Source: a virus. Taken from it: a stretch of 32,394 bases of DNA. Positions 1,148 to 20,804 of this stretch are shown here, piece by piece. A program made the translations under genes and the position numbers. How positions within the stretch are numbered: position 1 is the first letter of the stretch; each line of letters begins with the position of its first letter. Under the pieces are notes generated by a model that did no database searches, was not told the origin of the DNA, and saw only the letters and a list, made by a program, of their open reading frames with translations. The stretch spans positions 1 through 32,394 of the IMG/VR virus record IMGVR_UViG_3300010167_000008. The stretch is one strand, 5' to 3'.

Positions 1148-1696
1148 TTAACGTTTGTAAAATTTGTAAAGATATGCCACCCGTGCCTCGTTGTTCAGTA
1201 CGTCGTAACCGATGAGGAAATTGTTCCCTTTGATTTCGAACCCGATTTGAGGTGCGAGCGATATTTTTGCAGATTTGATATTGTAACCAACCTCCGCGCC
1301 TGCCAAAAGTCCCCATTTTTGATAATTGTGGTTAGTGCGGTCGATGGTGTGTGTAATTGTAGTATTTTTTTCTCGATACTTGAGACTGTCAAGCCTGCAA
1401 TCGTAACCCGTAATCCATGCCTGATAATTTGTGTCAGAGTAATAGTACTCTGAAATAGGTAACGGAACGGACAATGTGGTGTCGTTTGCAGTAATGGTAT
1501 AGATAACAGTATCAACAACTCGCTCAATGTGAAACACGGGTGTAATAATGCTCACAACTGAATAATCAACGATTGTGTCGCGTGTTTCACGGACTTCAAC
1601 CCTGTCAATATACGATACTTTTTGGTTACATGATTTAGCAAAGAAAACTAATGCCAACGCCACCGCTGCAATTATGATATAATCTTTGTACGTCAT
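1148..1696 (-). CDS. Putative lipoprotein of the lysis cassette (182 aa; spanin-like or outer-membrane associated)
   Basis: N-terminal signal peptide with a lipobox-like ALVFFAKS|C; beta-rich C-terminal part; ATGA overlap with the upstream ORF at 1693..1696. Confidence 0.45.
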   Translation of the reverse strand: MTYKDYIIIAAVALALVFFAKSCNQKVSYIDRVEVRETRDTIVDYSVVSIITPVFHIERVVDTVIYTITANDTTLSVPLPISEYYYSDTNYQAWITGYDCRLDSLKYREKNTTITHTIDRTNHNYQKWGLLAGAEVGYNIKSAKISLAPQIGFEIKGNNFLIGYDVLNNEARVAYLYKFYKR

Positions 1697-3056: not shown

Positions 3057-4742
3057 TCATGGTTTTTTGAAGATTAAAACGTTCTGATGCACTCTGACGA
3101 CTTTGCTCGTCTTCATGCAGTTGTTGGCTCGCATTCCCGCGTTGCCAAATTTATTAACGAGGATAATCTCGTTGTAAAACTTGCAGCCCGCGTCCGTGAA
3201 CGCTCGGATAGTGTCGGGGACGAACCCATAGTAATTCCCGTCCTTGTCGCGAAATTCGCTAACTACAAAGGCAGCAAACCCGCCACGTTTGAGCACACCG
3301 CAAGACTTTTCTATTATCTGTCGGTACACCTGCATAAACGCGGGATATTTCATCGTGGATAGGTCTTCTGGAATGTCGCTGTACACTTCGAGGTCTCCAT
3401 ACGGAGGGCAACTCATAACCATATCAAACTCCGCTCCTTCGAGCATATCAAGGATTTGATTGCTGTCGCCGATAATCCAATTCGGCATCTTGATTTCAGG
3501 AGCCGCAACGGGGGTGCGCATGGTGGGTCGAATGCCAACTATCCACAGTAGGTCAGCGGGTTGTAGAAAGTCAATACACTTCGCCTCGTAGTATGGGTCG
3601 AGTTGAATTCCATTGTAAGTAGTAACCATTGCAGCGGAATGATAATCGCTACCATCGACGTCGACGATAGTAACCATGTCCCTCCAATTTGGCGGCGCGT
3701 ACTTATCAAGTCGCACCTCAGGGTCAGCACCAACGCGCACCGCAACAACGGGGATGTCCCGCATAGTGTCGCGCAACCCCCAAAGTACACCCGCAAGGGT
3801 CATGCCGCTTCCGCATGGCATTACAATCCGATTGACTTCGGGTGGAATGTTCTGAACTTGTTGGCGGTTCTGAGTAACAGCCTCTTCGCACTCCATACCA
3901 AAGGGGACGTCAAGATAATTCTCGGCGGCGGCAAATTCTCGGCTCCGTGCAATAATGACGGAGTTATAACCTTCCTTGTGCTGAATTATCCTCGCGCCGC
4001 TGTCTTGCGCCGCAATTAGTTCGTCGGATAACTGACCTTCGGGCGCGTGTACCACAACGGGAATGCCAAAGGCTTTTCCAATTTTGGCGAGGATATTGAT
4101 TTGCGGGCTGCTTCTGCTCCCCGCCGTTGTTATCCCCTGACCGACCGTGCGGTTCTTGATAACGAATTGAGAAGCCGTGCGAGCCTTCCCGCCAACCGCG
4201 CCACCGATTTCGAACAAGTCGTCCCGCTTGAAATAGACGTCGTCTATCAGTTGCACGGGGGTTAATTCGTTCGGGTTGCTGATGATTTGCGGTTTGGCGT
4301 TGGCAGGTGATTTGAATATTTCGCGGGCTTGCTCGTAATTGCTCTCGACCTGCTCCTTGCGGAGTTCAATGCCCGTGTAATCATAACCGAGTTTGTTGGC
4401 AACAATTCCTCGAACGGAGCCTCCTGCAAATGGATCAAGAATAGTCCCTCCCGTTGGCGCAAACCACTTGTATAACACTTCGCAGAGTGTCGCGCTGAAT
4501 ATACTTATATTAGATTTGAATTGTGTGCCAAATCTTGCATTATTCCTATTAGCGCCGCACCGTTCATTTCTTCCTAATTCTGACTTGATTCCCTTGCGTA
4601 ACCATTTGCCCTCGTTTTTATTATAATCGCCCGAGCGGGTGTCAATTATGGAAAATGGGTTCAGTAGGTACTTCCCCGCGCAAGTGGTTGTCGCGTCGAC
4701 CTTGTCGCCGAATAAGTTGTAATTTTTATTTTGTTCTGTCAT
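3057..4742 (-). CDS. Fusion protein (561 aa): permuted N6/N4 DNA amino-methyltransferase with an inserted ACC-deaminase/D-cysteine-desulfhydrase-like PLP enzyme domain (aa ~158-407, nt ~3522..4271)
   Basis: MTase motif I ILDPFAGGSVRGIVANKLGYDYTGIEL (aa 101-127) and motif IV FDMVMSCPPYGDLEVYSD (aa 439-456). Insert carries TPVQ, FKRDDL, GGAVGGKAR (K186), ITTAGSRSSPQ, PCGSGMTLAGVLWGL and GIQLDPYYEAKC. ATGA overlap with the helicase gene. Confidence 0.8.
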   Translation of the reverse strand: MTEQNKNYNLFGDKVDATTTCAGKYLLNPFSIIDTRSGDYNKNEGKWLRKGIKSELGRNERCGANRNNARFGTQFKSNISIFSATLCEVLYKWFAPTGGTILDPFAGGSVRGIVANKLGYDYTGIELRKEQVESNYEQAREIFKSPANAKPQIISNPNELTPVQLIDDVYFKRDDLFEIGGAVGGKARTASQFVIKNRTVGQGITTAGSRSSPQINILAKIGKAFGIPVVVHAPEGQLSDELIAAQDSGARIIQHKEGYNSVIIARSREFAAAENYLDVPFGMECEEAVTQNRQQVQNIPPEVNRIVMPCGSGMTLAGVLWGLRDTMRDIPVVAVRVGADPEVRLDKYAPPNWRDMVTIVDVDGSDYHSAAMVTTYNGIQLDPYYEAKCIDFLQPADLLWIVGIRPTMRTPVAAPEIKMPNWIIGDSNQILDMLEGAEFDMVMSCPPYGDLEVYSDIPEDLSTMKYPAFMQVYRQIIEKSCGVLKRGGFAAFVVSEFRDKDGNYYGFVPDTIRAFTDAGCKFYNEIILVNKFGNAGMRANNCMKTSKVVRVHQNVLIFKKP

Positions 4743-6178
4743 ACTTTTTTTGATTTAGTTGGTAGTGAAAAAGGGTCGAGTTCGCCGAAGCAAAAGTCAA
4801 GGTCGGGCATCGCCCAATCGAGACCGACATAGCAATAACAGTTTTCGAAGCCCTTGCGGTTTACGTTCTTTTTGACAACGCCCTGCCTTGATAACTCTTG
4901 GTCGATGAGTTTACGGGTTGCAATCGGCAACACCCCAAAGGTGCTCCGCAACTTGTCGTTCACGTCTTTAACCGCAAGTATTGCCAACGGGTTATCCTTG
5001 TCAATCATAAAGATTTTCATATACTCCGAATAACTCGTTTGCACGGTTTTATCCGTTCGGTTGAGTTTGGGCTTGTAACGGAAACTTTTAATAAAATCGA
5101 CAATAATCTTGTTGCGTTCGGGTTGGAATACGTCGAGGAAGTTGGTGTTTCTGTCCCACGCAATTTCAAGCGTTTTCTCGGGACTTTCATATTCAATCAT
5201 ACGTCTAATTGTCCCGCTGTCAATATCGTTTATTACAATGGGATTATTACTGAAATACACCACACTTGCGCACACTTGCAACGTGCCGCCGTTGGTACTC
5301 AATTCACGATAAGGAACGCTCGTGCCACTTGTAATCCTCTTGATGAGGTTGTTGTCTTTTTGGCGTTCGTTGCTTTCGTCAATCAGTATCGTCGAGGCGC
5401 GGTTCATCTTGCGTTTTTCGACGATAAAGTCGTAACCGCTGACCCGTGTGCTGAATGCCTCCTCAGTAATCTCGCAGATAAGTCCGTCAAAGATTTGGCA
5501 CATGAGAGCAACGAATGTCGATTTGCCGCTCCCGCCTTTTCCTTTGACAGATACAAAGTATTGTCCGCCCCGTGTACGTTGGAGCGATTTGCTGAACACC
5601 GAAAGGAGTTCGTAGTATTCGTCCTCATCCTTGACGCCGAAAACATTGTAACAAAGTTTCCGAAAGTTGCTCGGCGGCTCTTTGTCTTCCCAATCGAGAT
5701 TATCCACGAGTACGCTGTCAATGCAGCACACCTCGCGGCATCGCGGGGATAATGTTTCAGGTTTCAGATATCGAACGATGTACGGGTGCGGCTTGAGCCA
5801 CAACCCGAGTTCGATGTTGTCGTCGGCGTGGTTACGGAAGTGCAAATTGCGCTCGTAACCATTTGCCGCCGCCCGCTGTTCGCGGTCAATTATACGCTTG
5901 AAAATCTGGTCGATAAAGTCTTTGCAGTCTATAAGTTCCTGTCGGTCAGTGAGTATCTCTTGGATGTCGGGATACTCATGCTCTTCGGGTGTCATATTCG
6001 CCAACACCCGCCGCGCAATAAGGTAACAGACGGGGAATTGTGTACTCGATTCCTTGACCGAAATCTTATACATTACTCCCTCGTCGTTGAACCAATATTC
6101 GCCGCCATAATAGACAATGTCGTCAATCCAATACTTTCCGCGTGATGTGATATAGGTGGAAAAATCTTTGCTATCCAT
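4739..6178 (-). CDS. SF3 helicase, D5/P4-type NTPase (479 aa)
   Basis: Walker A VKGKGGSGKSTF, Walker B-like ILIDES, then LIKRITSGTSVPYRELSTNGGTLQVCASVVYFSNNP, typical of P4/D5 C-terminal helicase domains; no primase motifs recognised. Confidence 0.7.
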   Translation of the reverse strand: MDSKDFSTYITSRGKYWIDDIVYYGGEYWFNDEGVMYKISVKESSTQFPVCYLIARRVLANMTPEEHEYPDIQEILTDRQELIDCKDFIDQIFKRIIDREQRAAANGYERNLHFRNHADDNIELGLWLKPHPYIVRYLKPETLSPRCREVCCIDSVLVDNLDWEDKEPPSNFRKLCYNVFGVKDEDEYYELLSVFSKSLQRTRGGQYFVSVKGKGGSGKSTFVALMCQIFDGLICEITEEAFSTRVSGYDFIVEKRKMNRASTILIDESNERQKDNNLIKRITSGTSVPYRELSTNGGTLQVCASVVYFSNNPIVINDIDSGTIRRMIEYESPEKTLEIAWDRNTNFLDVFQPERNKIIVDFIKSFRYKPKLNRTDKTVQTSYSEYMKIFMIDKDNPLAILAVKDVNDKLRSTFGVLPIATRKLIDQELSRQGVVKKNVNRKGFENCYCYVGLDWAMPDLDFCFGELDPFSLPTKSKKV

Positions 6179-6726: not shown

Positions 6727-7410
6727 TCAGACGATTATCGTTGTGCCGCGAACGGCAACGCGAACCCGATTGAAGCCCGCACGAGCGAACTTCGCGAGTA
6801 TCATTCCCGCCCGTGCGCCGCTTTCTGATTTATGCAGTGTTATAATTTTGGTGGTCTTGTTGTGCGCAATTCTGCTCACATAGTCGACACACTTGTCGTC
6901 TGAACAATGGTTGCGCAACCGCTCTTTTTTATCCTCGTCGAGGTCTTCAAAAATGAAGTTGTTGTAACTGCATTCAATCATAATCGCGTCGAAATTGTAG
7001 TGGCTGAGTTGGTCGATGACCTCGTCGTCAATGTGATAAAAGTCGGTTGCGTATAATATGGTCTTCTTGCATTTGGTTTGTATTATAAAGCCGTTGCAAG
7101 TTGAGGCGTTGTCGCGCAAGATTTTCGCATGATAATCGTGATGCACGGGGAAGGAGTACACGTCGAATTCCGTTACCTGCTTTCCGAAGAAAATCTCGTA
7201 TTGCTTTGAAACGTTAAAAACGAAGTGGTCGGAGTGTCGGTGGCTGACAATGAAGCCGCAATATTCTTTCGCCTCCTTTGTGTTGGCGATGACGGAGGAG
7301 TAGTTGAGCCACGCCTCAACGACGAGGCAGTTGCCCGCCTCGTCGATAAGAGCATAACTGTTTCCACTGCTACCTGTCCCGAGTACTTTAATTGTCGCCA
7401 TTGATGTCAA
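6727..7410 (-). CDS. Metallo-beta-lactamase-fold hydrolase (227 aa), probable nuclease of the recombination module
   Basis: IKVLGTGSSGNS near the N-terminus and an HxHxDH motif (VSHRHSDH). Confidence 0.7.
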   Translation of the reverse strand: MTSMATIKVLGTGSSGNSYALIDEAGNCLVVEAWLNYSSVIANTKEAKEYCGFIVSHRHSDHFVFNVSKQYEIFFGKQVTEFDVYSFPVHHDYHAKILRDNASTCNGFIIQTKCKKTILYATDFYHIDDEVIDQLSHYNFDAIMIECSYNNFIFEDLDEDKKERLRNHCSDDKCVDYVSRIAHNKTTKIITLHKSESGARAGMILAKFARAGFNRVRVAVRGTTIIV

Positions 7411-7651
7411 ATTTTAAAAGAAAACGTTTCTTTAAGTTTGAATTACAAACAGTTGTAGATTCTAAAATAGACTTTTCAAATGCTTTTATTGCTTTTTCTA
7501 TTATTTCTTCTTCGGAGAGTTCAACTGCTTTAATTGCATCTTTTTTAAGAATCGTTTCGATTGTGATTTTTTCATTGCTTAATATGTTTCCATTATAAGA
7601 AACAAATACTATCGCATTATCGATAAATTTACTTGCGTTTTTACTTTGCAT
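7388..7651 (-). CDS. Hypothetical protein (87 aa)
   Basis: ORF whose start shares one base with the RecT-like stop; AT-rich. Confidence 0.45.
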   Translation of the reverse strand: MQSKNASKFIDNAIVFVSYNGNILSNEKITIETILKKDAIKAVELSEEEIIEKAIKAFEKSILESTTVCNSNLKKRFLLKFDINGDN

Positions 7652-8577
7652 TAATCGAATGGGTGTTCTTCGGGTTCGGTTGTTACGGGTTCGGGTTCGG
7701 ATTTGAGCCCTGCAATAATTGCCTCTTTTTTTGGCGGCGGTGGTGTGTCCGCTTGCGCGGGTGGGTGTTGCGTTTCTTTCTTCGGTTCGGATACTTTGGT
7801 TAATACCTTGTTATCTTTGACCTCAACGTATTCAACGTCAATCGGTTTGCCTTCGTTTTCTTGCGAATAACCTGCAAACTCGTTCGGGAATGCTCGCTCA
7901 AACGCTTGCGCGAGTGCCACCTTGCAAATCATGAACGCGGGGCGCGTGAGCCATATCTCGTTCACTTCCTTGTCGGTGTACTTTCTAAGTTTGTCGTCCC
8001 AGTTGGTATTCTTTGCATTGTTGAAGCGGTTTTCCTCGAAAGATACTTCGCTGATTTCGTGGTGTTCCCAATCCTTGCGATATACCTCCGCCCATCCTGC
8101 AATGAGGATTTCCTTTGGCAGCAACCACTCGCCCGCACGACGAACGAGTTCGCCTTTGTCGGTTACAACGATGATTCCGTGTTTGCAGCCATTGTAGTTC
8201 GGGCTCATGGCAGCGCGGCGCATGGCAACCTCGTAGGATGGCATTAACACCACTTTTCCGCCTTTCTTTGTAATGGATACATCGCGGCTTGCGGGGTTGA
8301 GACCGAGAATTTGCGCGTCGATAAATACCTGCAATAATTCGCCATAATCCCAACAATTTTCGAAGTCTTTCTTCGCTTGGTGTGGCAACTCTGCCTCGCA
8401 GGATTTCCCCATATTTTTCAGAAAATCCTCCTTTGATGTAATGTCTTTCAAGCCAAAGAAGGCTCGCATGGTTATTCCGCATCTCTCCTTACAAAGTGCG
8501 GCGGCTTCCTGAGCCGTTGCAAGTGCAATCGCCTCTTGCATGGTTACTTTTTTGATTGCTTTGGTTTCGTCACTCAT
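7651..8577 (-). CDS. RecT/Bet-like single-strand annealing protein (308 aa)
   Basis: LGLNPASRDVSITKKGGKVVLMPSYEVAMRRA and WLTRPAFMICKVALAQAFERAFPNEF resemble the RecT-family core; Pro/Glu-rich acidic C-terminal tail ending EEHPFD. Confidence 0.6.
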   Translation of the reverse strand: MSDETKAIKKVTMQEAIALATAQEAAALCKERCGITMRAFFGLKDITSKEDFLKNMGKSCEAELPHQAKKDFENCWDYGELLQVFIDAQILGLNPASRDVSITKKGGKVVLMPSYEVAMRRAAMSPNYNGCKHGIIVVTDKGELVRRAGEWLLPKEILIAGWAEVYRKDWEHHEISEVSFEENRFNNAKNTNWDDKLRKYTDKEVNEIWLTRPAFMICKVALAQAFERAFPNEFAGYSQENEGKPIDVEYVEVKDNKVLTKVSEPKKETQHPPAQADTPPPPKKEAIIAGLKSEPEPVTTEPEEHPFD

Positions 8578-8746
8578 TTTCTTTTAAATTAAGTTGATAA
8601 TTTGTTTGTTGCAATAATGCTTCGAGGGCTTCTTTTTGGTAGTAACGGCGATTCTGGTCAATGGTTGCCCGCCATATTTCGTCGTCCAATTTTTTAATCA
8701 TCTCCTCGAGCGATTTCCGTTTGTGTTCATCGAGATTTGTTGCCAT
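8570..8746 (-). CDS. Small coiled-coil protein (58 aa; below the ORF-track cutoff)
   Basis: Hand translation gives MATNLDEHKRKSLEEMIKKLDDEIWRATIDQNRRYYQKEALEALLQQTNYQLNLKENE; its stop overlaps the RecT-like start (ATGAGTGA). Confidence 0.45.
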   Translation of the reverse strand: MATNLDEHKRKSLEEMIKKLDDEIWRATIDQNRRYYQKEALEALLQQTNYQLNLKENE

Positions 8747-8758
8747 ACTATAACGGTT

Positions 8759-8890
8759 TTAAAAGTGCAACGGATCCGCGAAACGGTTGGTAGGTTCGCT
8801 CGCAATGTAACATATTGAGCCGTGTTTGCGTTTGAATTTCAGCCACCTCTTTTGTTCTCGCAGGTGGTCGCGATAGTCTTCAAAGGTCAT
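8759..8890 (-). CDS. Small hypothetical protein (43 aa; alternative start at 8920)
   Basis: MTFEDYRDHLREQKRWLKFKRKHGSICYIASEPTNRFADPLHF; the longer track ORF (to 9205) would overlap 8880..9305 in another frame. Confidence 0.3.
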   Translation of the reverse strand: MTFEDYRDHLREQKRWLKFKRKHGSICYIASEPTNRFADPLHF

Positions 8891-9305
8891 TCCTTTGGGA
8901 CGGGAGGATAAAATAGTCATCGGGATTAAATTTTGGTTTGTACTTCTTTTCGTAAAAATCTTTAACTTTTTGGCACTTTTCAGCGTCTTGGAAGTTGTTG
9001 GTGTACTTCTTTGCCTTTCTGAATAGATCGTGGAACTCATGCAAGTTTTCGGACATTTCTTGCAGCCCTTTCCGTATGGCAGCCCATCGGGATAATTCGG
9101 CGAGCATCCGCTCATTTTCCATCTGAGCAATCTCGGGCGTGATATACTTTGTCTTCCGTTGTTGCGCCGCGTGTGCCGTCTGCAATTCACACCTGCCATT
9201 TGCACGGCATTCCCCGCAAGGTGTGAAGCAAGGGTGTTGCGAGTAGTTTGGGTTGCGGGGAAACACTACTCGTTCCATAGGATAATTCGCCGCTTGATTA
9301 GTCAT
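8880..9305 (-). CDS. Hypothetical protein with an N-terminal Cys cluster (141 aa)
   Basis: CFTPCGECRANGRC; ATGA overlap with the stop of the Rad50-like gene. Confidence 0.5.
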   Translation of the reverse strand: MTNQAANYPMERVVFPRNPNYSQHPCFTPCGECRANGRCELQTAHAAQQRKTKYITPEIAQMENERMLAELSRWAAIRKGLQEMSENLHEFHDLFRKAKKYTNNFQDAEKCQKVKDFYEKKYKPKFNPDDYFILPSQRNDL

Positions 9306-11233
9306 GACTCAATAATTAACGGGGAATTTTCTTTAACCCGTAACTCCACGAGGCACGGCAACAACGGCATATTCTTTTTCTCGCAGTTTTCGGCATTGTC
9401 GAAAAAGATAGGAAGGGCAACGGCGAAATGGTCTTGAAATCGTTGGCAGAGCATTGATAGTTTCGCATTTGCGCGGCTTGTATTTGGATTTTCAAACCCG
9501 TCAATCTTCATAATGGCAACCTCTTCGAAGCCCTCTTGCGTTATAAGTTTACGGAACAAAGTGATTTCAATTCCATCGGGAAGAAACTTGGAAATAGCGT
9601 CCTGACAATCAGTGCGATAATCGTTCTCAGCCTGCTCAATGGCAATCATTTGTCGCTCGTTCTCAATTAACGCCTTGCGCACCATTTCCGAACGGGCATC
9701 ATTTTTCGCAATCTGCTCGTCCGCCGTTGCATACCCATACGCAATCTCATCAGCCTTTTTGTCTTCGGATTGTAACTGCTCGATTTCGAGTTTGGCTGCT
9801 TGGATTTTTTCGCTGTTATTCACACCCTTGAAATCCGTGATGATTTTGGCTTGTAACTCCGCAATCCTCTTCGCCTTGTCGTCTTCCCACTTGCAAAGGT
9901 TGGCAGCGTTTTCGTCGTTGATAACCTGATTGTCGTGCGAAAACTGTTCACGGGCTTTCGCGTTGGTTTCGTTAATGGCAGCGTTACGGGCGGCGATTTC
10001 CTCGTTCTCCTTCTTTATTGCTTCGTTCTGCAATTCGATTGACTCGTTAAAAGTCTTGTCAAGGTTGCGCAATTCCGAACCTTGCTTTGTAACCGCGTCA
10101 ATCTCGGCAACAATGGCGGCTTTCCGCTCTTCAAGATTTTGCACCGATTTGTCAATCTCTTCCAATTTGGCAGCAATTTTCAGAGCGGCGTCAGCCTTGC
10201 TCGTATTGCGTTGAATTTCGGCGCAATCGGCATTCGTGCAGTACGGGCAAACCATACAGATGAAGTCCTCTTTATCGGCGGCGGCGGAGGTTACACTTGC
10301 AACCGTTTCTCGCTGTTTATTCCAATATGCAATCTTTTCATCGATGGCTTCGCGTTCTGCTACCTTCCCGCGATAAGTTACCAACAACCGCTCAATTTCG
10401 GGGTTCTTCTTGAGTTCAAGGTACATTTTAGGAGCCTCAATTTCGGCGGGCGTGAAAACGAGTTGCGGTTTGGGTGTAAACTTTTCGCCGTGAATATCTT
10501 GTATCTTTTCGCGGAGGCTTTGATTTTCCGCTAAAACATCGCTTGACACGGCGGCACGTTCTTCTTCATACATTTGCTCGATTTCTTTTTGAAGTGCGCT
10601 GATTCGGGCTGTATTGCGGTCGGTTTTTGGTTTTTCAGCGAAAGTCTCCCGCAAACTCTTTGATTTTATGTTCAACTCCTCCATTTCAGCCTTCTGCTCG
10701 TTGATTTCCTTGCGCAACACCGCTTTATTCGGAAGTTCGCGAATATAGTCAATCAGGTTCACGTTCACAATGGAGGAAATTATCTTGAGTTTATCCTTTT
10801 GCGCAAGGCTGATGAAATATTGCGGGTTTGTGAAAAGAGCAAGGTCGTAACCCTTGCAAGTATCCGCGATAGCGGCATTGTAGTCCGCCAACTTTACGGG
10901 CGTTTCGTTAAGAAAATATTCGCAGTTCAATTCGGTTTTTAACTTTTCGTCGTCCGTGCCGCGCTCGCGGGAATATAGTGGCTTTGCAGCCTTGCGGAAA
11001 ATCATGTCGTCCGTGTGGAAGGCAACTTCGGCAAATCGGTTGCCGTCCCTGTCTTCGTGGTTGTACACGTTGGACGATGTGAATTCTTTCATGTCGATAG
11101 AGCGTTGGTTCATACACCATAAAAAAGCATCTAAAATGGTGGTTTTTCCGCTCCCGTTTTCGCCGCTCACGGTGGCGGGGAATGCCACCGTGAGGTCGTG
11201 GTGTTTCTTGAATCTTTTAATTTCGATTTTCAT
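9302..11233 (-). CDS. Rad50/SbcC-like SMC-type ATPase with a zinc hook (643 aa)
   Basis: Walker A GENGSGKTT, long coiled-coil middle, mid-protein CPYC hook (aa 329-332, nt ~10238..10249), C-terminal Walker B-like LPIFFDNAE. Confidence 0.7.
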   Translation of the reverse strand: MKIEIKRFKKHHDLTVAFPATVSGENGSGKTTILDAFLWCMNQRSIDMKEFTSSNVYNHEDRDGNRFAEVAFHTDDMIFRKAAKPLYSRERGTDDEKLKTELNCEYFLNETPVKLADYNAAIADTCKGYDLALFTNPQYFISLAQKDKLKIISSIVNVNLIDYIRELPNKAVLRKEINEQKAEMEELNIKSKSLRETFAEKPKTDRNTARISALQKEIEQMYEEERAAVSSDVLAENQSLREKIQDIHGEKFTPKPQLVFTPAEIEAPKMYLELKKNPEIERLLVTYRGKVAEREAIDEKIAYWNKQRETVASVTSAAADKEDFICMVCPYCTNADCAEIQRNTSKADAALKIAAKLEEIDKSVQNLEERKAAIVAEIDAVTKQGSELRNLDKTFNESIELQNEAIKKENEEIAARNAAINETNAKAREQFSHDNQVINDENAANLCKWEDDKAKRIAELQAKIITDFKGVNNSEKIQAAKLEIEQLQSEDKKADEIAYGYATADEQIAKNDARSEMVRKALIENERQMIAIEQAENDYRTDCQDAISKFLPDGIEITLFRKLITQEGFEEVAIMKIDGFENPNTSRANAKLSMLCQRFQDHFAVALPIFFDNAENCEKKNMPLLPCLVELRVKENSPLIIES

Positions 11234-11315
11234 TGATTACTTTGGTGTTAAGATATTTTTGATACAAGTTGTAAAAAAATGCAGCACGGCGGATTTGAGA
11301 TTGATATTCTTCAAT

Positions 11316-11474
11316 TTATTTTTCTGCCTCTGCCTTGCGTTCCTCAGCGGAGGATAACATAGTTTTATAATCCCTGATTTTCTTTTGGGAATGGTACATG
11401 GCGTCGCTTATGAAAGCACTTTCTTCGGCTTCAATCTTATAGATGAGAGCGTCTAATGGTTCGGGTTGTTTCAT
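11316..11474 (-). CDS. Small hypothetical protein (52 aa; below the ORF-track cutoff)
   Basis: Hand translation gives MKQPEPLDALIYKIEAEESAFISDAMYHSQKKIRDYKTMLSSAEERKAEAEK; starts 1 nt after the stop of 11476..11733. Confidence 0.35.
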   Translation of the reverse strand: MKQPEPLDALIYKIEAEESAFISDAMYHSQKKIRDYKTMLSSAEERKAEAEK

Positions 11475-11475
11475 G

Positions 11476-11733
11476 TTAGTCAATGTTAGCGATTATGTCT
11501 TCTTTATTTTCGTATAAGTTCCACTCGTTAGCGGTTGATTCGTGTTTACAACCGTTGCGGTTGTCGGCGGTTATTACCTCATAGAGTACATGAGTATCAA
11601 TTTCCTCATTTCCGTCTCTTTGGCTTCGATTTTGGGTTTGGGTTTGGATTTTTTTCACAGTAACGCGAATAATACTGCAATGGTCTATTAAATAAACCTC
11701 TTGTCCGATGTTGAATTTTGTTTTAATGTCCAT
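11476..11733 (-). CDS. Hypothetical protein (85 aa)
   Basis: ORF on the coding strand within the early operon. Confidence 0.5.
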   Translation of the reverse strand: MDIKTKFNIGQEVYLIDHCSIIRVTVKKIQTQTQNRSQRDGNEEIDTHVLYEVITADNRNGCKHESTANEWNLYENKEDIIANID

Positions 11734-11754
11734 AATGTAATGAAATTTAATTTG

Positions 11755-12339
11755 TTAAACGTTATAATCTGAAATTGCAAGCGGCATAATAACCGCGATT
11801 GAATTTTGCCAACGGGGTTCGTCGGATGTGCAAACAATCGGAACTTTATCCCCTTTGAAGTTGTAGATGATTTTCTTGTGCGCAAAGGCGTCAATCAACG
11901 AGCGATAAATCTCTGAGTTGATTGCAACCCGTGTAACGCCATTTTCGCAACCCTCTTGAGGTTCGAGTTCTTTGGCATTTTTTATAAATTCGTCAATGTC
12001 GGGAAATTTCAGTTCGTCGCCCGAATAAAAGGCAAAGAATGCTCCTTTGATTCCTTTTGCGTTGGTACATTGAATTCCGTCCTCTTGGACGATAATAGAA
12101 TGACATCCGAGCATTGCTGCATAACTTTCGCCATGCAAGATTTTCCCGTCAAGGAGTGTAATTTGCTCCTCGCTGAGGTTGCAGATGTCAGTCAGGTAGT
12201 TTTTAATCGCGCAATGTGCGTCAGTTGCATACGCAAACCCACCCTTGAAATGAATGTAATTCATTGCGGGGCGAATTTCGTCTTTGAGACACGCCTTGTG
12301 CATTTTCACAGACGAGTAGAAGTTGATTTTTTTTGCCAT
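11755..12339 (-). CDS. Sliding-clamp (DnaN)-like domain protein (194 aa)
   Basis: EIRPAMNYIHFKGGFAYATDAHCAI resembles the DnaN domain-I RP...TD pattern; KFPDIDEFI resembles the clamp FPDY..VIP linker; C-terminal IAVIMPLAI. Weak, by eye. Confidence 0.4.
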   Translation of the reverse strand: MAKKINFYSSVKMHKACLKDEIRPAMNYIHFKGGFAYATDAHCAIKNYLTDICNLSEEQITLLDGKILHGESYAAMLGCHSIIVQEDGIQCTNAKGIKGAFFAFYSGDELKFPDIDEFIKNAKELEPQEGCENGVTRVAINSEIYRSLIDAFAHKKIIYNFKGDKVPIVCTSDEPRWQNSIAVIMPLAISDYNV

Positions 12340-12354
12340 AATGATAAAATTTTG

Positions 12355-12362
12355 GTTAATAG
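12355..12362 (-). promoter_or_regulatory. CTATTAAC motif (variant of TTATTAAC), 15 nt upstream of the ATG at 12339
   Basis: GTTAATAG on plus. Confidence 0.3.
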
Positions 12363-12366
12363 TTAA

Positions 12367-13242
12367 TTATAAGGAGTTTACATAATCCTTCAATTCTTGG
12401 ATATAGGTAACGCGCTCGCGTTCTTCTGTGTCTTTTAGTTCAAAAAACAAGTTTTCGTCAAACACGCTGTTAATTGCTTCCTCACACATGGATTGTATTT
12501 TTTCTGGGCGCACGGCGTCGAGTTCCACTTGTCCCAACCCATCCCAATTCGCTGTCCTGCTATCCGTAACCTTTGCAGGCGCGGGCGGCAACTTCCACTC
12601 GATAACTTGGTGCTCCATGAGCGAAATCCGTCTCACGTCCACGTCCACTCCGAGTTTCATGAGATTATCCTTGATTGCGCGTGGTATGTCCTCCCCACTT
12701 GGGTCATAGTCGCCAAAGTACAATATCACGGGTGTTTTTCCATGTCTCACGGCACGTTTGAAACGGCGGGATGCTTCATATAGAAACGTCAAAGAAGGAT
12801 AACCCTTGCAAGCCCCCAACCCGACGTCGTGTTTACTGCACACCTTGTCAAATACTCCCTCGAGTGCCTTTTTTTCAATAAATACCTCAGGATAAATCGG
12901 TTGATTTTCCCAACGGTTTTTTCTGTAAACCGTCATCCACAATCCGACCTGACGTTGTCCTTCGTCAATCTTGTCAGATAACACGGTTTCGTCGGCGTTG
13001 GTGTCGTTTGCCATTTCTCTATCCCTGTCGCAGAATGTATCAAAATCAACAAGCCCGTCCCACCTTGCAACGCCCATCGCCGCAACGACGCGGTCGTAGT
13101 GTTGTTGTGTGTTGGTCATGCCGATAGATACGAGTTGGTAGTGGAGTGCTCTGATTGTGAGCACTCCTTTTTCGTAGCGTTTGATAATCTCTAGGCTGTT
13201 CTCAATTATCCATTGTCTTGTAAATTGGTCTCTTGCTGCCAT
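12367..13242 (-). CDS. Spo11/Topoisomerase VI-A-like protein (5Y-CAP + Toprim), 291 aa
   Basis: R31-A-L-H-Y35 matches the R-x3-Y catalytic Tyr motif; Toprim Glu in VFIEKKALEGVF; KGYPS; DxD in ILYFGDYDPSGEDI; C-terminal GQVELDAV. Confidence 0.65.
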   Translation of the reverse strand: MAARDQFTRQWIIENSLEIIKRYEKGVLTIRALHYQLVSIGMTNTQQHYDRVVAAMGVARWDGLVDFDTFCDRDREMANDTNADETVLSDKIDEGQRQVGLWMTVYRKNRWENQPIYPEVFIEKKALEGVFDKVCSKHDVGLGACKGYPSLTFLYEASRRFKRAVRHGKTPVILYFGDYDPSGEDIPRAIKDNLMKLGVDVDVRRISLMEHQVIEWKLPPAPAKVTDSRTANWDGLGQVELDAVRPEKIQSMCEEAINSVFDENLFFELKDTEERERVTYIQELKDYVNSL

Positions 13243-17818: not shown

Positions 17819-18901
17819 TTACCGGAATAATTGAACTTGCAAATCTATTACATATATTTTTGCTCCAATATCTTTACTCTCAGGAACAATCATTTTGTCT
17901 CTCCAACGTAACCAATTATAAGCAAATAAATTTGATAATACATCAAGATTATAAGTCCTATACGTATAATCTAACATGGAAAAGAATATAATTTCTTTTC
18001 CTGAATGATTATATATAAGTGCATCATTTCTAAATATTTGTAATCCATAAATGAAAGGGTATTGTAAATTAGTATTAATAGATGTTTCATCCAACAAATT
18101 AAAAACAACATACCAACCTGTTCCTTGTACACCCGAACCAATTAATATTTTGTCGTGAAATAAAGCCATTATATTATTCCCGTTACTTCTTGACGCTGCT
18201 GCTAATGTAACTATACGAGTTTTTTCAGTTGTTAAATCTATAATGTCAATAATATTAGTATCGCTTCTATGTACATATAGATTTCCTCTCCACACCACAC
18301 CACAAAACCGATTTGCTGACGCTAGAAGAACCATCATACGATAGGTTTCAGTATTTAAGTCAAAAATGCAACAAAGATTGCTATTGGGTGCGAAAATGTA
18401 CAATGCATCACGATATATAATTGAAAATGTTGTCGAAGTAAAAGGAATATTAACAGTTCTAACTACTTTTGTTTGTGTATTAATTATTTCAATATTTGCT
18501 TGATTGCTTGTTATATATAAGTTATCTTTCCAAGCATTTATTGAATTTCTAACTCTTGAACTTCCCAACGATACTTCGCTTGCAGTTTCAGTAATACAAT
18601 CAAAAATTGTCATATTTTGACTATTATATCCTGCACCATAAAAAACATCATTATGAATACATGATGCTCTTATTTCTCCTTGTTCTGTACGGTTATATGA
18701 CCTAAATTTTGGAGTTGGATCAGGAACTTTTACAACAACGGGATTAAACCCATCAACTCCACTGTCGACGTTGTATGTCCCGTTGGCAGTAACATTCAAA
18801 GGATTAATTACGGGAGGAGTAGTTGTTCCTCCACTCCCTTCGGCTTCAAAGTAGCGGGTAATTATAACCCGTTTTTCTTTCATATCTTTTGATAATTGCA
18901 T
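17819..18901 (-). CDS. Putative receptor-binding tail protein with a ~7-bladed beta-propeller-like repeat domain (360 aa)
   Basis: Seven ~40-aa repeats sharing (W/Y/F)(R/K/H)(D/G)xLY ... hhhDhxTE, e.g. MTIFDCITETASEV, IEIINTQTKVV, CCIFDLNTETYRM, IDIIDLTTEKTRI, VVFNLLDETSI, IFFSMLDYTYRT, IYVIDLQVQ; last large gene of the tail module; very AT-rich. Confidence 0.55.
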   Translation of the reverse strand: MQLSKDMKEKRVIITRYFEAEGSGGTTTPPVINPLNVTANGTYNVDSGVDGFNPVVVKVPDPTPKFRSYNRTEQGEIRASCIHNDVFYGAGYNSQNMTIFDCITETASEVSLGSSRVRNSINAWKDNLYITSNQANIEIINTQTKVVRTVNIPFTSTTFSIIYRDALYIFAPNSNLCCIFDLNTETYRMMVLLASANRFCGVVWRGNLYVHRSDTNIIDIIDLTTEKTRIVTLAAASRSNGNNIMALFHDKILIGSGVQGTGWYVVFNLLDETSINTNLQYPFIYGLQIFRNDALIYNHSGKEIIFFSMLDYTYRTYNLDVLSNLFAYNWLRWRDKMIVPESKDIGAKIYVIDLQVQLFR

Positions 18902-18918
18902 GATAATAAATATTTTAA

Positions 18919-18926
18919 GTTAATAA
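18919..18926 (-). promoter_or_regulatory. TTATTAAC motif, 17 nt upstream of the ATG at 18901
   Basis: GTTAATAA on plus. Confidence 0.35.
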
Positions 18927-18953
18927 ATAAAGTTCAAAAATATATAAATTCTA

Positions 18954-20804
18954 TTAATCCAATAAAATCAGAGTTAATTCTGCTATCCCTTTCTGCCATG
19001 TGCCTCCCGAGCAAGCGTATTTTTTCGCTTTTAAAATAAAGGTTGTTTTTTCTTTAATGTTATGGAATTCATATTGATACATATATAATTTCGCAATAAC
19101 TTCGGTCGATTTTTCATAAATATTATCTAGATGCGAATTTGGGAAGAATTGTATCCTTTTGAATTTTGAATTTGGTGCTGCCATCATTAATTCAGCACCA
19201 TCCCTTTTCAAAAAAAAGTTTACCCCATCAGAATGAATATCATCAGAAAAGGAAACACCGTCTTCTTCGTTAGTTTCCGAAAATGGTATAACGAATAATT
19301 CTTTTTCAACGGGCAAATTATCATTTTCTATCTCTAATACCCTTATTTGATTATTTTTAACATAATCAAGACTATCAAATCTAACTATGTTTTTTTGAGC
19401 GGAATCAATAAATGTTCTTCTTACAGACTTTATAGAAATAATTTTATCTGTAATATCGATTATATTATTATCAGGAAAATTGTAATCAAAGAATTCAATT
19501 TCATTGTCATTAATAATAATTCCATTTTTAGTTAAATTAGATATTGTTAATATCAAATCAACCGCCGTGCATTGTGGCATATTGAATTGAAGATGTACGT
19601 AATTGTTATAGATTAATTCTTCTTGAAATTCTTCTATTTCTGCAAAAAAAAGACCATGCCTACCATTATTTGAGGCATCCGTTCCGAGTGCCTGCGAAGA
19701 ATCTAATTCAACCCACCCGTCAGGTTTGTTATAAGATTCAGGAGTTAATGCAAGGAAATTATGTTTATTCCATAATTGAAAATAAATTTCTTGTCCTTCT
19801 TCGAGTTCATACGGTTTAAATGGCGGAAATGGTGCGGTGTTGTTCTGTCTCCATATAACTAACTGTTTAGGCGTAACATTGTAATAGTTCATATTTTGGT
19901 CAAACGCGAGTTGCCCCCACGTTGATGGTTTAACTAATCCCCATACACTTTGCCCCGTTTGGCTATCTATTCGAATAACATCCCACATTGCAGTAGTTAC
20001 TTTCATTTTTTTATTCGCACGAAAACCATATACCCAATGCCAAACTCCGTCAAGTGTCTGAAATTGTCTACTTACAATAGATATTTCAGATGGATTATTT
20101 GGCAAAAAATATGTTCTGATATTTGGATTAGTAGGATGCGACCCATAACCACCGAGAACTATTATTTCTTTTGTCAAATAGTTAATGCTGCCACCTAAAT
20201 CATTTCTTTTAATATAAACATTGTTTATTAGAGTTGGTATATTTTTTGAAGTAATTCCGAAATTTAATAGGCTTTTTTCTAAAAGATACTTTAATTTTAC
20301 GCTTGGCAAATAATTAATTTTATTCGGTATATCCGCTTCCATTAAATTCAAATATTTTCCAATTCCATAATTTCCAACTTGGTCTGAATTGACAGGTGGA
20401 TTAGTTGCACCCCAAAAAACTTTATCTGAAAGTGTAAGATATGTATCTATTAATCCAGATTCTCGTAATTCCTTCAATTTAATTATATTTCCATACGCAA
20501 ATATGCAATCATAAGAATCATTAAATTCTCGAATTAATAATTCGCCATGTATAACTCCGTTTGGAAAATAAATATTAGCATTCTTCTTCGTTCTAATAAA
20601 TGTACCTCTATATTGTGGAAGATGAGCGAAATTGAATATCCTATCGTTTGTAGGTGTTCGATTTACTTTGAAAGATTGTGTTCTGTTTAATTTCATTTTC
20701 TCAAACATAAATAATGAATTCTCATACATATAAGAAAATGAAATATCGTCTAATTCTATCTCAACTCCGTCTATAAATAATCTGTTCATAATACTGTCCT
20801 CCAA
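18954..20804 (-). CDS. Large tail-tip/baseplate protein (616 aa; alternative start at 20789 gives an ATGA overlap with the upstream stop)
   Basis: Second gene downstream of the tape measure; AT-rich; assigned by synteny only. Confidence 0.5.
   Translation of the reverse strand: MEDSIMNRLFIDGVEIELDDISFSYMYENSLFMFEKMKLNRTQSFKVNRTPTNDRIFNFAHLPQYRGTFIRTKKNANIYFPNGVIHGELLIREFNDSYDCIFAYGNIIKLKELRESGLIDTYLTLSDKVFWGATNPPVNSDQVGNYGIGKYLNLMEADIPNKINYLPSVKLKYLLEKSLLNFGITSKNIPTLINNVYIKRNDLGGSINYLTKEIIVLGGYGSHPTNPNIRTYFLPNNPSEISIVSRQFQTLDGVWHWVYGFRANKKMKVTTAMWDVIRIDSQTGQSVWGLVKPSTWGQLAFDQNMNYYNVTPKQLVIWRQNNTAPFPPFKPYELEEGQEIYFQLWNKHNFLALTPESYNKPDGWVELDSSQALGTDASNNGRHGLFFAEIEEFQEELIYNNYVHLQFNMPQCTAVDLILTISNLTKNGIIINDNEIEFFDYNFPDNNIIDITDKIISIKSVRRTFIDSAQKNIVRFDSLDYVKNNQIRVLEIENDNLPVEKELFVIPFSETNEEDGVSFSDDIHSDGVNFFLKRDGAELMMAAPNSKFKRIQFFPNSHLDNIYEKSTEVIAKLYMYQYEFHNIKEKTTFILKAKKYACSGGTWQKGIAELTLILLD

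Follow-up and report, generated by a model that had tools for sequence, protein, structure and literature searches.

A phage amino-methyltransferase with an inserted PLP enzyme domain, a candidate for two-step DNA base hypermodification

Introduction

By hypermodifying their DNA, phages influence the arms race with defenses such as restriction and CRISPR, and epigenomics has gained useful enzymes from these modifications. To our knowledge, all known post-replicative hypermodifications derived from amino acids begin from 5-hydroxymethyl pyrimidines. Two phage proteins, M6 gp52 and ViI gp226, are proven decarboxylases of DNA-tethered amino acids that depend on pyridoxal 5'-phosphate (PLP); they convert Calpha-glycinylthymidine and O-serinylthymidine in DNA to the aminoethyl and aminoethoxymethyl derivatives (Lee et al., NAR 2021, PMC8989533), and ViI gp226 models on the structure 1j0a (PMC8989533). 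Among enzymes with a Rossmann methyltransferase fold, nicotianamine synthase transfers the aminocarboxypropyl group of S-adenosylmethionine (SAM) rather than its methyl group (PMC1282579). Here, we describe a phage protein of 561 amino acids (aa), P0001, in which a class-I amino-methyltransferase is interrupted by a PLP enzyme domain. Its gene lies in the IMG/VR virus record IMGVR_UViG_3300010167_000008 (positions 1 to 32,394; we call this whole stretch of 32,394 nucleotides the window).

P0001 is best described as a member of a large, uncharacterized, and internally coherent system, in which an amino-methyltransferase fold and a decarboxylase of the PLP or pyruvoyl kind, each a known part, are combined in an undescribed way. 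Full-text searches of the open-access literature returned no paper on a methyltransferase-PLP fusion, a split pair, or an operon of a methyltransferase with the SAM decarboxylase SpeD. We propose, with a probability of about 0.45, that P0001 carries out a two-step DNA hypermodification, in which the C3/C4 chain of SAM is moved onto a base and decarboxylated to leave an aminopropyl base. An earlier note on this DNA, made from its letters alone, had put the gene forward as a candidate for DNA modification beyond methylation. The comparative evidence presented here strengthens that proposal and, among the chemistries that the earlier note considered, favors PLP chemistry on the amino acid moiety of SAM.

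A methyltransferase in two halves

The open reading frame (ORF) runs from an ATG start to a TGA stop and encodes 561 aa plus the stop. Its parts are as follows, with positions in the window.

3057..4742, minus strand: whole ORF, P0001, a class-I amino-methyltransferase with an inserted PLP domain
4314..4742, minus strand: methyltransferase N-terminal part, aa 1-143 (Pfam PF01555, AlphaFold2 secondary structure, alignments)
4407..4439, minus strand: motif I loop LDPFAGGSVRG, aa 102-112, of the "G..R" type
3489..4313, minus strand: inserted fold-type-II PLP domain, aa 144-418 (Pfam PALP, phrog_3650, structural match, AlphaFold2 confidence)
4185..4187, minus strand: codon of K186, the predicted Schiff-base lysine (alignment to 1j0a and M6 gp52)
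3804..3812, minus strand: G311-S312-G313, glycine loop that binds the PLP phosphate (opposite the GSGGT loop in the alignment to 1j0a)
3579..3590, minus strand: Y385-E386-A387-K388, of the DPxYExK motif
3060..3488, minus strand: methyltransferase C-terminal part, aa 419-561, strands b3 to b7 plus motif IV (PF01555, phrog_12517, AlphaFold2)
3399..3410, minus strand: motif IV, C445-P446-P447-Y448, followed by GDLEVYSD

Pfam finds the methyltransferase N6_N4_Mtase (PF01555) in P0001 at 41 bits, against a gathering score of 26.7, as two separate stretches, one (aa 82-134) covering profile positions 166-218 (the motif I half) and the other (aa ~440-560) covering positions 2-106 (the motif IV half). 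PF00291 lies between them, which bears out the earlier claim that a SAM-binding half and a catalytic half are split by an insert. The N-terminal part (aa 1-143) contains a family-specific N-terminal region, a motif X-like SIFSATLCEVLYKWF (aa 80-94), strand b1, motif I, strand b2, and helix aB, while the C-terminal part (aa 419-561) matches the phage family phrog_12517 with E 2e-83. Motif I, DPFAGGSVRG, spans aa 103-112, and its G108 and R111 are invariant in methyltransferases linked to a PLP domain of the PALP type (PALP-linked enzymes). Motif IV is CPPY, with Cys where the (D/N/S)PPY of PF01555 has D, N, or S; it is invariant in 50 homologs, and of the 201 PALP-set proteins with a located motif IV, 200 have CPPY.

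An AlphaFold2 model of P0001, built from a 50-sequence alignment (mean predicted local distance difference test score, pLDDT, 86.9; predicted template modeling score, pTM, 0.72), arranges the chain as b1 (100-103), motif I, b2 (121-126), a helix (129-143), the insert, b3 (421-424), b4 (439-444), and CPPY (445-448). In an exhaustive structural comparison, aa ~22-143 and 419-561 jointly match the class-I methyltransferases Trm11, TrmN, and Trm14 (Z 17-18, ~180 aligned residues). Both methyltransferase halves are thus predicted by the model to fold as a single class-I Rossmann domain with motif I before motif IV. We reject the beta-class order (IV before I), since P0001 has I and then IV and is permuted only against the beta-class model of Pfam. 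The motif order that the earlier note had called permuted is therefore the normal class-I Rossmann order.

The PLP domain enters between helix aB and strand b3 of the model. Four cultured-phage relatives that have no insert (phiFL3A gp36, B054 gp77, phiCTP1 gp51, and HCTV-2 gp11) are 38-46% identical to both halves of P0001, and a linker of ~10 residues takes the place of aa ~144-418; the short linker that the earlier note ascribes to ordinary phage methyltransferases is what these four proteins have. The methyltransferase family corresponds to the phage families phrog_12517/phrog_498, in which an N-terminal ParB domain is frequent; P0001 is without one. The open-access literature searched yielded no biochemical data on the product or specificity of any phrog_12517/phrog_498 member. 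Methyltransferases of this family, with or without a PLP or SpeD partner, usually lie directly upstream of the genes for the small and large terminase (loci L017, L013, L023, L024, and L030-L032), a site that forms the junction of the replication and packaging modules.

The inserted PLP domain

Pfam places PALP (PF00291) at aa 167-341, with 47.3 bits against a gathering score of 35 (E 4e-13 to 2e-12), and the AlphaFold2 model of the insert has a pLDDT mostly >90. Structural comparison of aa 155-409 with 1j0a gives Z 24.8 and a root-mean-square deviation (rmsd) of 2.8 A over 254 aligned residues in a two-domain alpha/beta fold. Other top structural matches are D-cysteine desulfhydrase (Z 24.4) and 1-aminocyclopropane-1-carboxylate (ACC) deaminase (Z 23.4).

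The residues expected of a working PLP enzyme are present. In alignments, K186 falls on the lysine of GGNK in 1j0a and on K36 of M6 gp52, and it is conserved in 258 of 261 domains, so the lysine stands at the Schiff-base position to which it had been assigned at first sight. G311, S312, and G313 of the glycine loop are conserved in 260, 256, and 247 of the 261 domains. The DPxYExK motif, the counterpart of DPVYTGK in ACC deaminase and D-cysteine desulfhydrase (DcyD), is universal in the phage clade (Y385 in 261/261 domains, E386 in 260/261, and K388 in 261/261). Altogether, K186, S212, G311, S312, Y367, Y385, E386, and K388 are each kept in at least 256 of the 261 domains, and the same signature residues are kept in M6 gp52 and a ViI-like protein. 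Because the catalytic residues are near-invariant over 261 domains, we conclude that the insert is very probably an active PLP enzyme. The same conservation leads us to reject a degenerate PLP domain. All motifs quoted in the earlier note are present (DPFAGGSVRG, K186, the GSG loop at 311-313, YEAK at 385-388, and CPPY at 445-448), and its view that both enzymes look intact agrees with the sequence, in which motifs I and IV are present and the PLP residues are conserved.

The closest kin of the insert lie elsewhere than that note had supposed. Membership in the ACC deaminase/DcyD family, judged by the thresholds of curated NCBIfam models (TIGR01275, TIGR01274, and NF003029-32), is rejected: TIGR01275 scores 27.6 bits against a cut-off of 289.4, and PRK14045 scores 20.6 against 550. 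That family is a distant relative, and the nearest one is the ViI gp226 family, with M6 gp52 standing further off. PDB sequences match the insert at best marginally (E 0.03 or weaker). The family that it matches best is phrog_3650 (E 9e-31), that of ViI-like PLP proteins of the Ackermannviridae, in which Aeromonas phage TSW001 scores E 1e-174; the TSW001 PLP protein is 56% identical to those of ViI-like phages. The M6 gp52 family itself, phrog_7093, is not among the matches of the insert at E ≤ 0.01.

Profile comparison (hhalign) links the insert to MONT_41 of Glutamicibacter phage Montesquieu (probability 99.3%, E 4e-20) and to M6 gp52 (probability 89%, E 2e-6, 225 columns, with K186 on K36). 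MONT_41, a stand-alone, ortholog-like protein, is flanked by aGPT-Pplase2 on one side and two kinase-like genes on the other; its genome has the full 5-hydroxymethyldeoxyuridine (5-hmdU) pathway, and a pyrimidine hydroxymethylase and aGPT-Pplase clade 1 are also present there. MONT_41 is linked to a thymidine cluster, and it is 34% identical over its full length to gp2 of Mycobacterium phage Vincenzo, which is linked to a methyltransferase. Thus, the same enzyme type serves methyltransferase and thymidine-hypermodification contexts. The insert belongs to a phage PLP toolkit that trims amino acids already on DNA bases; its own substrate and activity are predictions from sequence.

An exhaustive HMMER search with the insert only (1.84 billion representatives, clusters at 50% identity) returned 899 clusters at E ≤ 1e-3 and 364 at E ≤ 1e-30. 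With only 899 matching clusters, the PLP clade is discrete and far smaller than the general PALP superfamily.

Distribution and arrangements of the pairing

A word-indexed search of 5.8 billion proteins with P0001 gave 4699 hits. The best 120 of these all carry both PF00291 and PF01555, and many of them have an N-terminal ParB domain. The earlier remark that no characterized enzyme has this architecture holds for the open-access literature searched, but among the best 120 of the 4699 hits the architecture itself is nothing exceptional. Both the fusion and the split version that the earlier note had proposed to look for exist in cultured phages: the fusion in Pseudanabaena phage Pam4 and Erythrobacter phages vB_EliS_R6L and ZS04, and the split form in the mycobacteriophages Vincenzo and AlanGrant. 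We sorted 256 collected homologs by the order of N-half, insert, and C-half, and Pfam confirmed several of the arrangements.

PLP domain inserted in the methyltransferase: 180/256
Whole methyltransferase, then PLP domain: 25/256
PLP domain first, then methyltransferase: 4/256
PLP domain only: 38/256
Fragments: 9/256

In Vincenzo, the ParB-methyltransferase gp1 has 36-37% identity to both halves of P0001, and the corresponding figure for the PLP enzyme gp2 is 30%; the two genes overlap by 35 nt. Other stand-alone PLP genes, ~50% identical to the insert, adjoin phrog_12517 methyltransferases that have no insert: the two genes abut in locus L021, and two small ORFs lie between them in L019. On a quick tree of the PLP domain, the arrangements are interspersed. 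This indicates that the modules were reshuffled repeatedly yet stayed together. A complex prediction for the L021 methyltransferase and its PLP partner P0196 with SAM and PLP scored 0.00; it gives no verdict and is not used as evidence.

Several observations accompany this survey. Locus L019 also encodes, at 8702..10801, a family-A polymerase fused to a uracil-DNA glycosylase (UDG), a kind of enzyme that has been reported in phages whose genomes are T-modified (PMC13697223). In Staphylococcus phage Alsa_1 (L005), a stand-alone PLP gene lies ~1 kb downstream of a distant methyltransferase with the I-then-IV order. Rare architectures of the PLP clade (P0132, P0222, P0128, and P0150) comprise a fusion to DNA polymerase A, a methyltransferase and PLP domain joined to a dioxygenase of the Asp/Arg beta-hydroxylase type, an extra class-I methyltransferase at the N-terminus, and an intein inside the fusion. 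The dioxygenase-bearing fusion hints at further tailoring of the adduct.

A SpeD-linked sister subfamily

A sister subfamily of the methyltransferase pairs with another decarboxylase. Directly downstream of its methyltransferase gene, and overlapping the 3' end, lies a gene for AdoMet_dc (SpeD, PF02675). This holds for Croceibacter phage P2559S (methyltransferase gp66) and Pseudomonas phage ZRG1 (SpeD Pfam E 2e-19 and 1.6e-23), for 3/3 sampled metagenomic relatives, and for 65/65 evaluable IMG/VR loci of the subfamily; the SpeD-linked loci are L025 (ZRG1), L026 (P2559S), L028-L032, and L113-L174. The set forms 28 clusters at 90% identity and ~7 at 70%. The SpeD homolog of P2559S restores spermidine in an E. 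coli speD mutant and is a genuine SAM decarboxylase (PMC9992855); its methyltransferase neighbor goes unmentioned in that paper. The linkage suggests that phage speD may have a role in DNA modification.

The choice of partner co-varies with motif I of the methyltransferase.

SpeD-linked enzymes (P2559S gp66 relatives): motif I FAG-D-(T/S)(V/I)-F-G in 114/120; the other 6 are D..K
PALP-linked enzymes with motif I: FAG-G-xx-R-G in 198/199

The sister subfamily has D and F at the positions of G108 and R111 of P0001. In none of 160 IMG/VR loci is SpeD combined with G..R or the PLP gene with D..F. Contacts to the carboxypropyl part of SAM are made by the GxGxG loop (Kozbial and Mushegian, PMC1282579), and in spermidine synthase an invariant mid-loop Asp excludes the SAM carboxylate, giving specificity for decarboxylated SAM (PMC1282579). 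The SpeD-linked subfamily, with Asp in its glycine-rich loop, thus looks adapted to decarboxylated SAM, and P0001, with Gly and an invariant Arg in motif I, looks adapted to carboxylate-bearing SAM. R111 fits a donor that retains its carboxylate, which favors transfer first and decarboxylation after.

Genome and locus

The genome is complete, with direct terminal repeats over 32,394 bp, and its long genes are all on the minus strand. Seven contigs (~32.3-32.4 kb) encode the identical 561-aa protein, among them contigs of ENA, JGI, and Logan assemblies; a frameshift or assembly artifact in P0001 is therefore unlikely. The single 561-aa ORF and its ATGA overlap with a helicase gene, both noted earlier, are confirmed, with the strand specified as minus.

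4739..4742, minus strand: ATGA overlap of the P0001 start with the stop of the upstream helicase gene
4739..6178, minus strand: upstream gene, 479 aa, DUF5906 P-loop protein (superfamily 3 (SF3)-type helicase/primase-like; Pfam), context outside the enzyme

No thymidylate synthase homolog, DNA kinase, aGPT-Pplase, or SpeD (AdoMet_dc) gene was detected in the 32.4-kb genome. The earlier statement that no other DNA-modification gene is visible holds, in that none is recognizable in the complete genome, where many ORFs are without a family match. The neighborhoods of six fusion-bearing contigs, the genome of P0001 included, contain no further conserved partner gene.

The insert is richer in GC (53.1%) than the flanking halves (45.2% and 47.6%) and the genome (42.9%), and it falls in the top 1% of the 750-nt windows of the genome. 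Its GC content at third codon positions (GC3) is 0.564, similar to that of neighboring genes, and the excess sits in codon positions 1 and 2. The excess is therefore a matter of amino acid composition and not a sign of foreign DNA, and we reject recent acquisition of the insert on this ground: the GC difference that the earlier note saw by eye is real, and it is no meaningful anomaly.

Of the surrounding genes, a DUF6808 protein is encoded at 1148..1696, downstream of the P0001 gene. An ORF with Peptidase_M15_3, a probable endolysin, lies at 5413..5775 of locus L008, which is downstream of the P0001 gene in the window. A recombination and replication module occupies 6727..13242 on the minus strand.

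6727..7410, minus strand: metallo-beta-lactamase (MBL)-fold hydrolase
7651..8577, minus strand: RecT
9302..11233, minus strand: SbcC/SMC-like ATPase
11755..12339, minus strand: RusA-like protein, weak match
12367..13242, minus strand: match to phrog_6247 "DNA topoisomerase" (E 2e-61), without a Pfam match

Further along, two minus-strand ORFs (360 and 616 aa; 17819..20804) have a GC content of 31-32% and GC3 of 0.20-0.24 in a genome of 43% GC. They have a single weak PHROG match, with function unknown, and lie just downstream of a tape-measure-like gene; given their low GC and this site, they look like recently exchanged tail-fiber or receptor-binding genes.

Proposed mechanism and alternatives

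A single methyltransferase family has two unrelated decarboxylase partners: a proven SAM decarboxylase and a PLP clade for DNA-tethered amino acids. The simplest common denominator of the two is decarboxylation of the methionine-derived chain of SAM. Decarboxylation would matter to the transferase only if this chain reaches the acceptor, and we therefore propose aminocarboxypropyl or aminopropyl transfer. From the observed architecture, catalytic residues, family relationships, and gene linkage, we infer the group transferred, the order of the steps, the target base, and the biological role.

P0001 would be a self-contained, two-module enzyme that hypermodifies DNA bases. Its transferase module would bind SAM and move the 3-amino-3-carboxypropyl chain, not the methyl group, to the exocyclic amino group of a flipped A, C, or G base. 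The PLP module would then make a Schiff base by way of the free alpha-amine of the tethered amino acid and remove CO2, so that an N-(3-aminopropyl) base would result. Running the steps in the opposite order, with SAM decarboxylated by the PLP module before its aminopropyl group is transferred in the manner of spermidine synthase, would lead to this base as well. Decarboxylation first seems to be the order that operates in the SpeD-coupled sister subfamily. In the genome of P0001, which has neither the 5-hmdU pathway nor SpeD, an amino acid substrate on DNA would come from the protein's own transferase module.

More broadly, at somewhat less than even odds, P0001 and its thousands of relatives may install a base modification not yet described, N-(3-aminopropyl) on an exocyclic amine or the 3-amino-3-carboxypropyl form that precedes it, drawing on the methionine chain of SAM by two convergent routes. 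One route would be aminocarboxypropyl transfer followed by PLP decarboxylation on the DNA (P0001), and the other would be aminopropyl transfer from decarboxylated SAM made by SpeD (the sister subfamily). A block against restriction and other defenses that target DNA would be the expected effect of the cationic side chain, as with other phage hypermodifications.

Several findings weigh against this proposal. The catalytic motifs (D103-P-F and xPPY) are those of ordinary amino-methyltransferases, and PALP-linked and unlinked G..R enzymes cannot be told apart at any position of the methyltransferase core; the top-ranked differences between the two sets are alignment-edge effects or modest frequency shifts. 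Among the sampled G..R enzymes that have no insert, 63/75 (~84%) have no decarboxylase within 3.5 kb; the family may therefore simply methylate. Only 13 phage records match the insert at all, and phiFL3A and B054 are not among them. In the AlphaFold2 model, the cofactor edge and the insertion point lie on opposite sides of the Rossmann sheet. The profile link to M6 gp52 itself is moderate (probability 89%). The SpeD-linked set is largely one clade, so that the association of D..F with SpeD represents few independent events. A D..K subgroup (FAGDTQKG; loci L175, L177-L186, L188, L189, and L191) has the Asp and no AdoMet_dc or PLP gene within ~3 kb.

The main rival, which we consider unlikely, takes P0001 as an ordinary N6-adenine or N4-cytosine methyltransferase whose PLP module acts on free SAM, S-adenosylhomocysteine (SAH), or a related small metabolite, and never on DNA. 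Accessory roles are conceivable: supplying decarboxylated SAM for polyamines, lowering the SAM pool of host restriction, or destroying inhibitory SAH. Motifs I and IV are canonical for amino-methyltransferases, no core residue marks the PALP-linked enzymes, and most relatives that lack the insert are partnerless, all of which suits plain methylation. Phage SpeD, moreover, has been interpreted as a polyamine auxiliary, and the P2559S enzyme makes free decarboxylated SAM in E. coli (PMC9992855). Yet a metabolic helper needs neither insertion into a loop, nor at least three re-fusion topologies, nor operon adjacency across hundreds of lineages. The characterized kin in the PLP clade act on DNA-tethered substrates, and the strict co-variation of motif I with SpeD indicates a methyltransferase adapted to the product of the decarboxylase.

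The same co-variation (100% linkage of SpeD with the D..F variant) would also be expected if the partner supplied an orthogonal methyl donor, that is, if decarboxylated SAM were used to methylate DNA simply while SAM-dependent host defenses are starved. Decarboxylated SAM retains the sulfonium methyl group, and an Asp like that of spermidine synthase predicts that it is bound. We judge this account improbable, however. P0001 and all PALP-linked enzymes lack the Asp and have an invariant Arg, as their unlinked relatives do, so nothing suggests that they prefer decarboxylated SAM, and the natural users of decarboxylated SAM with this fold that we know of, for example spermidine synthase, transfer aminopropyl.

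A further alternative, that the PLP domain is an exapted, noncatalytic module for target recognition, dimerization, or regulation in a protein that is only a methyltransferase, is very improbable. The domain does occupy a surface loop of the Rossmann fold, and ACC deaminase and DcyD are dimers. Against this, the Schiff-base lysine, the phosphate loop, and the substrate-site residues are almost invariant over 261 domains; the N-terminal, C-terminal, inserted, and separate forms of the domain do not fit a fixed structural role; and the same clade has stand-alone enzymes of proven activity (PMC8989533). Equally hard to credit is beta-elimination and replacement, the "alanylation" of the earlier note, in which aminoacrylate from serine, O-acetylserine, or cysteine is captured by a flipped base to give an alanyl base: the fold is common to O-acetylserine sulfhydrylases and cysteine synthases (Z ~20) and the lysine and glycine loop are intact, but nothing was found in its support, the closest family is the ViI gp226 decarboxylases, the best structural matches are ACC deaminase and DcyD with cysteine synthases more distant, and it leaves the SpeD pairing of the methyltransferase family unexplained and the SAM-binding site without a role.

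If aminocarboxypropyl or aminopropyl transfer to DNA is what these enzymes do, the pathway would be new and very compact, requiring an ordinary base and SAM only and a single polypeptide. Judged by database records, it would be widespread among Bacteroidota, Cyanobacteria, Actinobacteria, Proteobacteria, and Firmicutes phages. DNA modification would be the function of many phage speD genes that are at present taken for polyamine auxiliaries, and DNA enzymes with a methyltransferase fold would be capable of transferring the C3/C4 arm of SAM. Each variant occurs in cultured phages: P2559S, ZRG1, Pam4, R6L, ZS04, Vincenzo, and AlanGrant.

Comparison with known systems

M6 gp52 and ViI gp226 are, like the insert, compact phage fold-type-II PLP enzymes, and they have S212, GSG, Y367, and YExK in common with it. 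They differ in context: M6 gp52 and ViI gp226 are associated in their genomes with a 5-hmdU DNA kinase and an aGPT-Pplase amino acid:DNA transferase, whereas the P0001 insert is joined to a methyltransferase, and neither of those partners was detected in its genome. ACC deaminase and DcyD (1j0a, 4d97, and 1rqx) resemble the insert in structure (Z 24.8, 24.4, and 23.4; rmsd 2.8 A; ~252 aligned residues). In the 1j0a alignment, the lysine, the SxxQ/SNH serine, and the DPxY..K tyrosine coincide, with S212 and Y385 of the insert as the equivalents of the serine and the tyrosine. The insert is ~70 residues shorter than these enzymes, at 18-22% identity.

For the methyltransferase, the nearest likeness is with phiFL3A gp36 (Enterococcus), B054 gp77 (Listeria), and phiCTP1 gp51 (Clostridium), which have motif I DPFAGGSVRG and motif IV CPPY..DLEVYSD of P0001. 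Enzymes of phrog_12517/phrog_498 share its genome position at the replication/packaging junction, and most carry an N-terminal ParB domain.

The CmoA/CmoX system of Synechococcus phage S-B43, which makes carboxymethylcytosine, also combines an enzyme of methyltransferase fold that installs a non-methyl group with a partner that acts on SAM, and ParB-domain proteins are often nearby (PMC12783734). It differs in its C5-cytosine methyltransferase, in the carboxy-SAM supplied by CmoA, in having no PLP enzyme or decarboxylation, and in belonging to other families.

Spermidine synthase, with a class-I methyltransferase fold, transfers to an amine the C3 chain taken from decarboxylated SAM. The sister subfamily resembles it in the Asp of the glycine-rich loop (compare Asp101) and in the operon link to SpeD. 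P0001 is likened to it by fold and loop; it has G108 in place of the Asp, an Arg, and no SpeD, and its proposed acceptor is a DNA base rather than a polyamine. TYW2 and Tsr3 are RNA 3-amino-3-carboxypropyl transferases, and TYW2 acts on a nucleic acid base, with no decarboxylation step after the transfer. By description, P0001 is likened to nicotianamine synthase, TYW2, and Tsr3, with the difference that the substrates of TYW2 and Tsr3 are RNA and the proposed substrate of P0001 is DNA.

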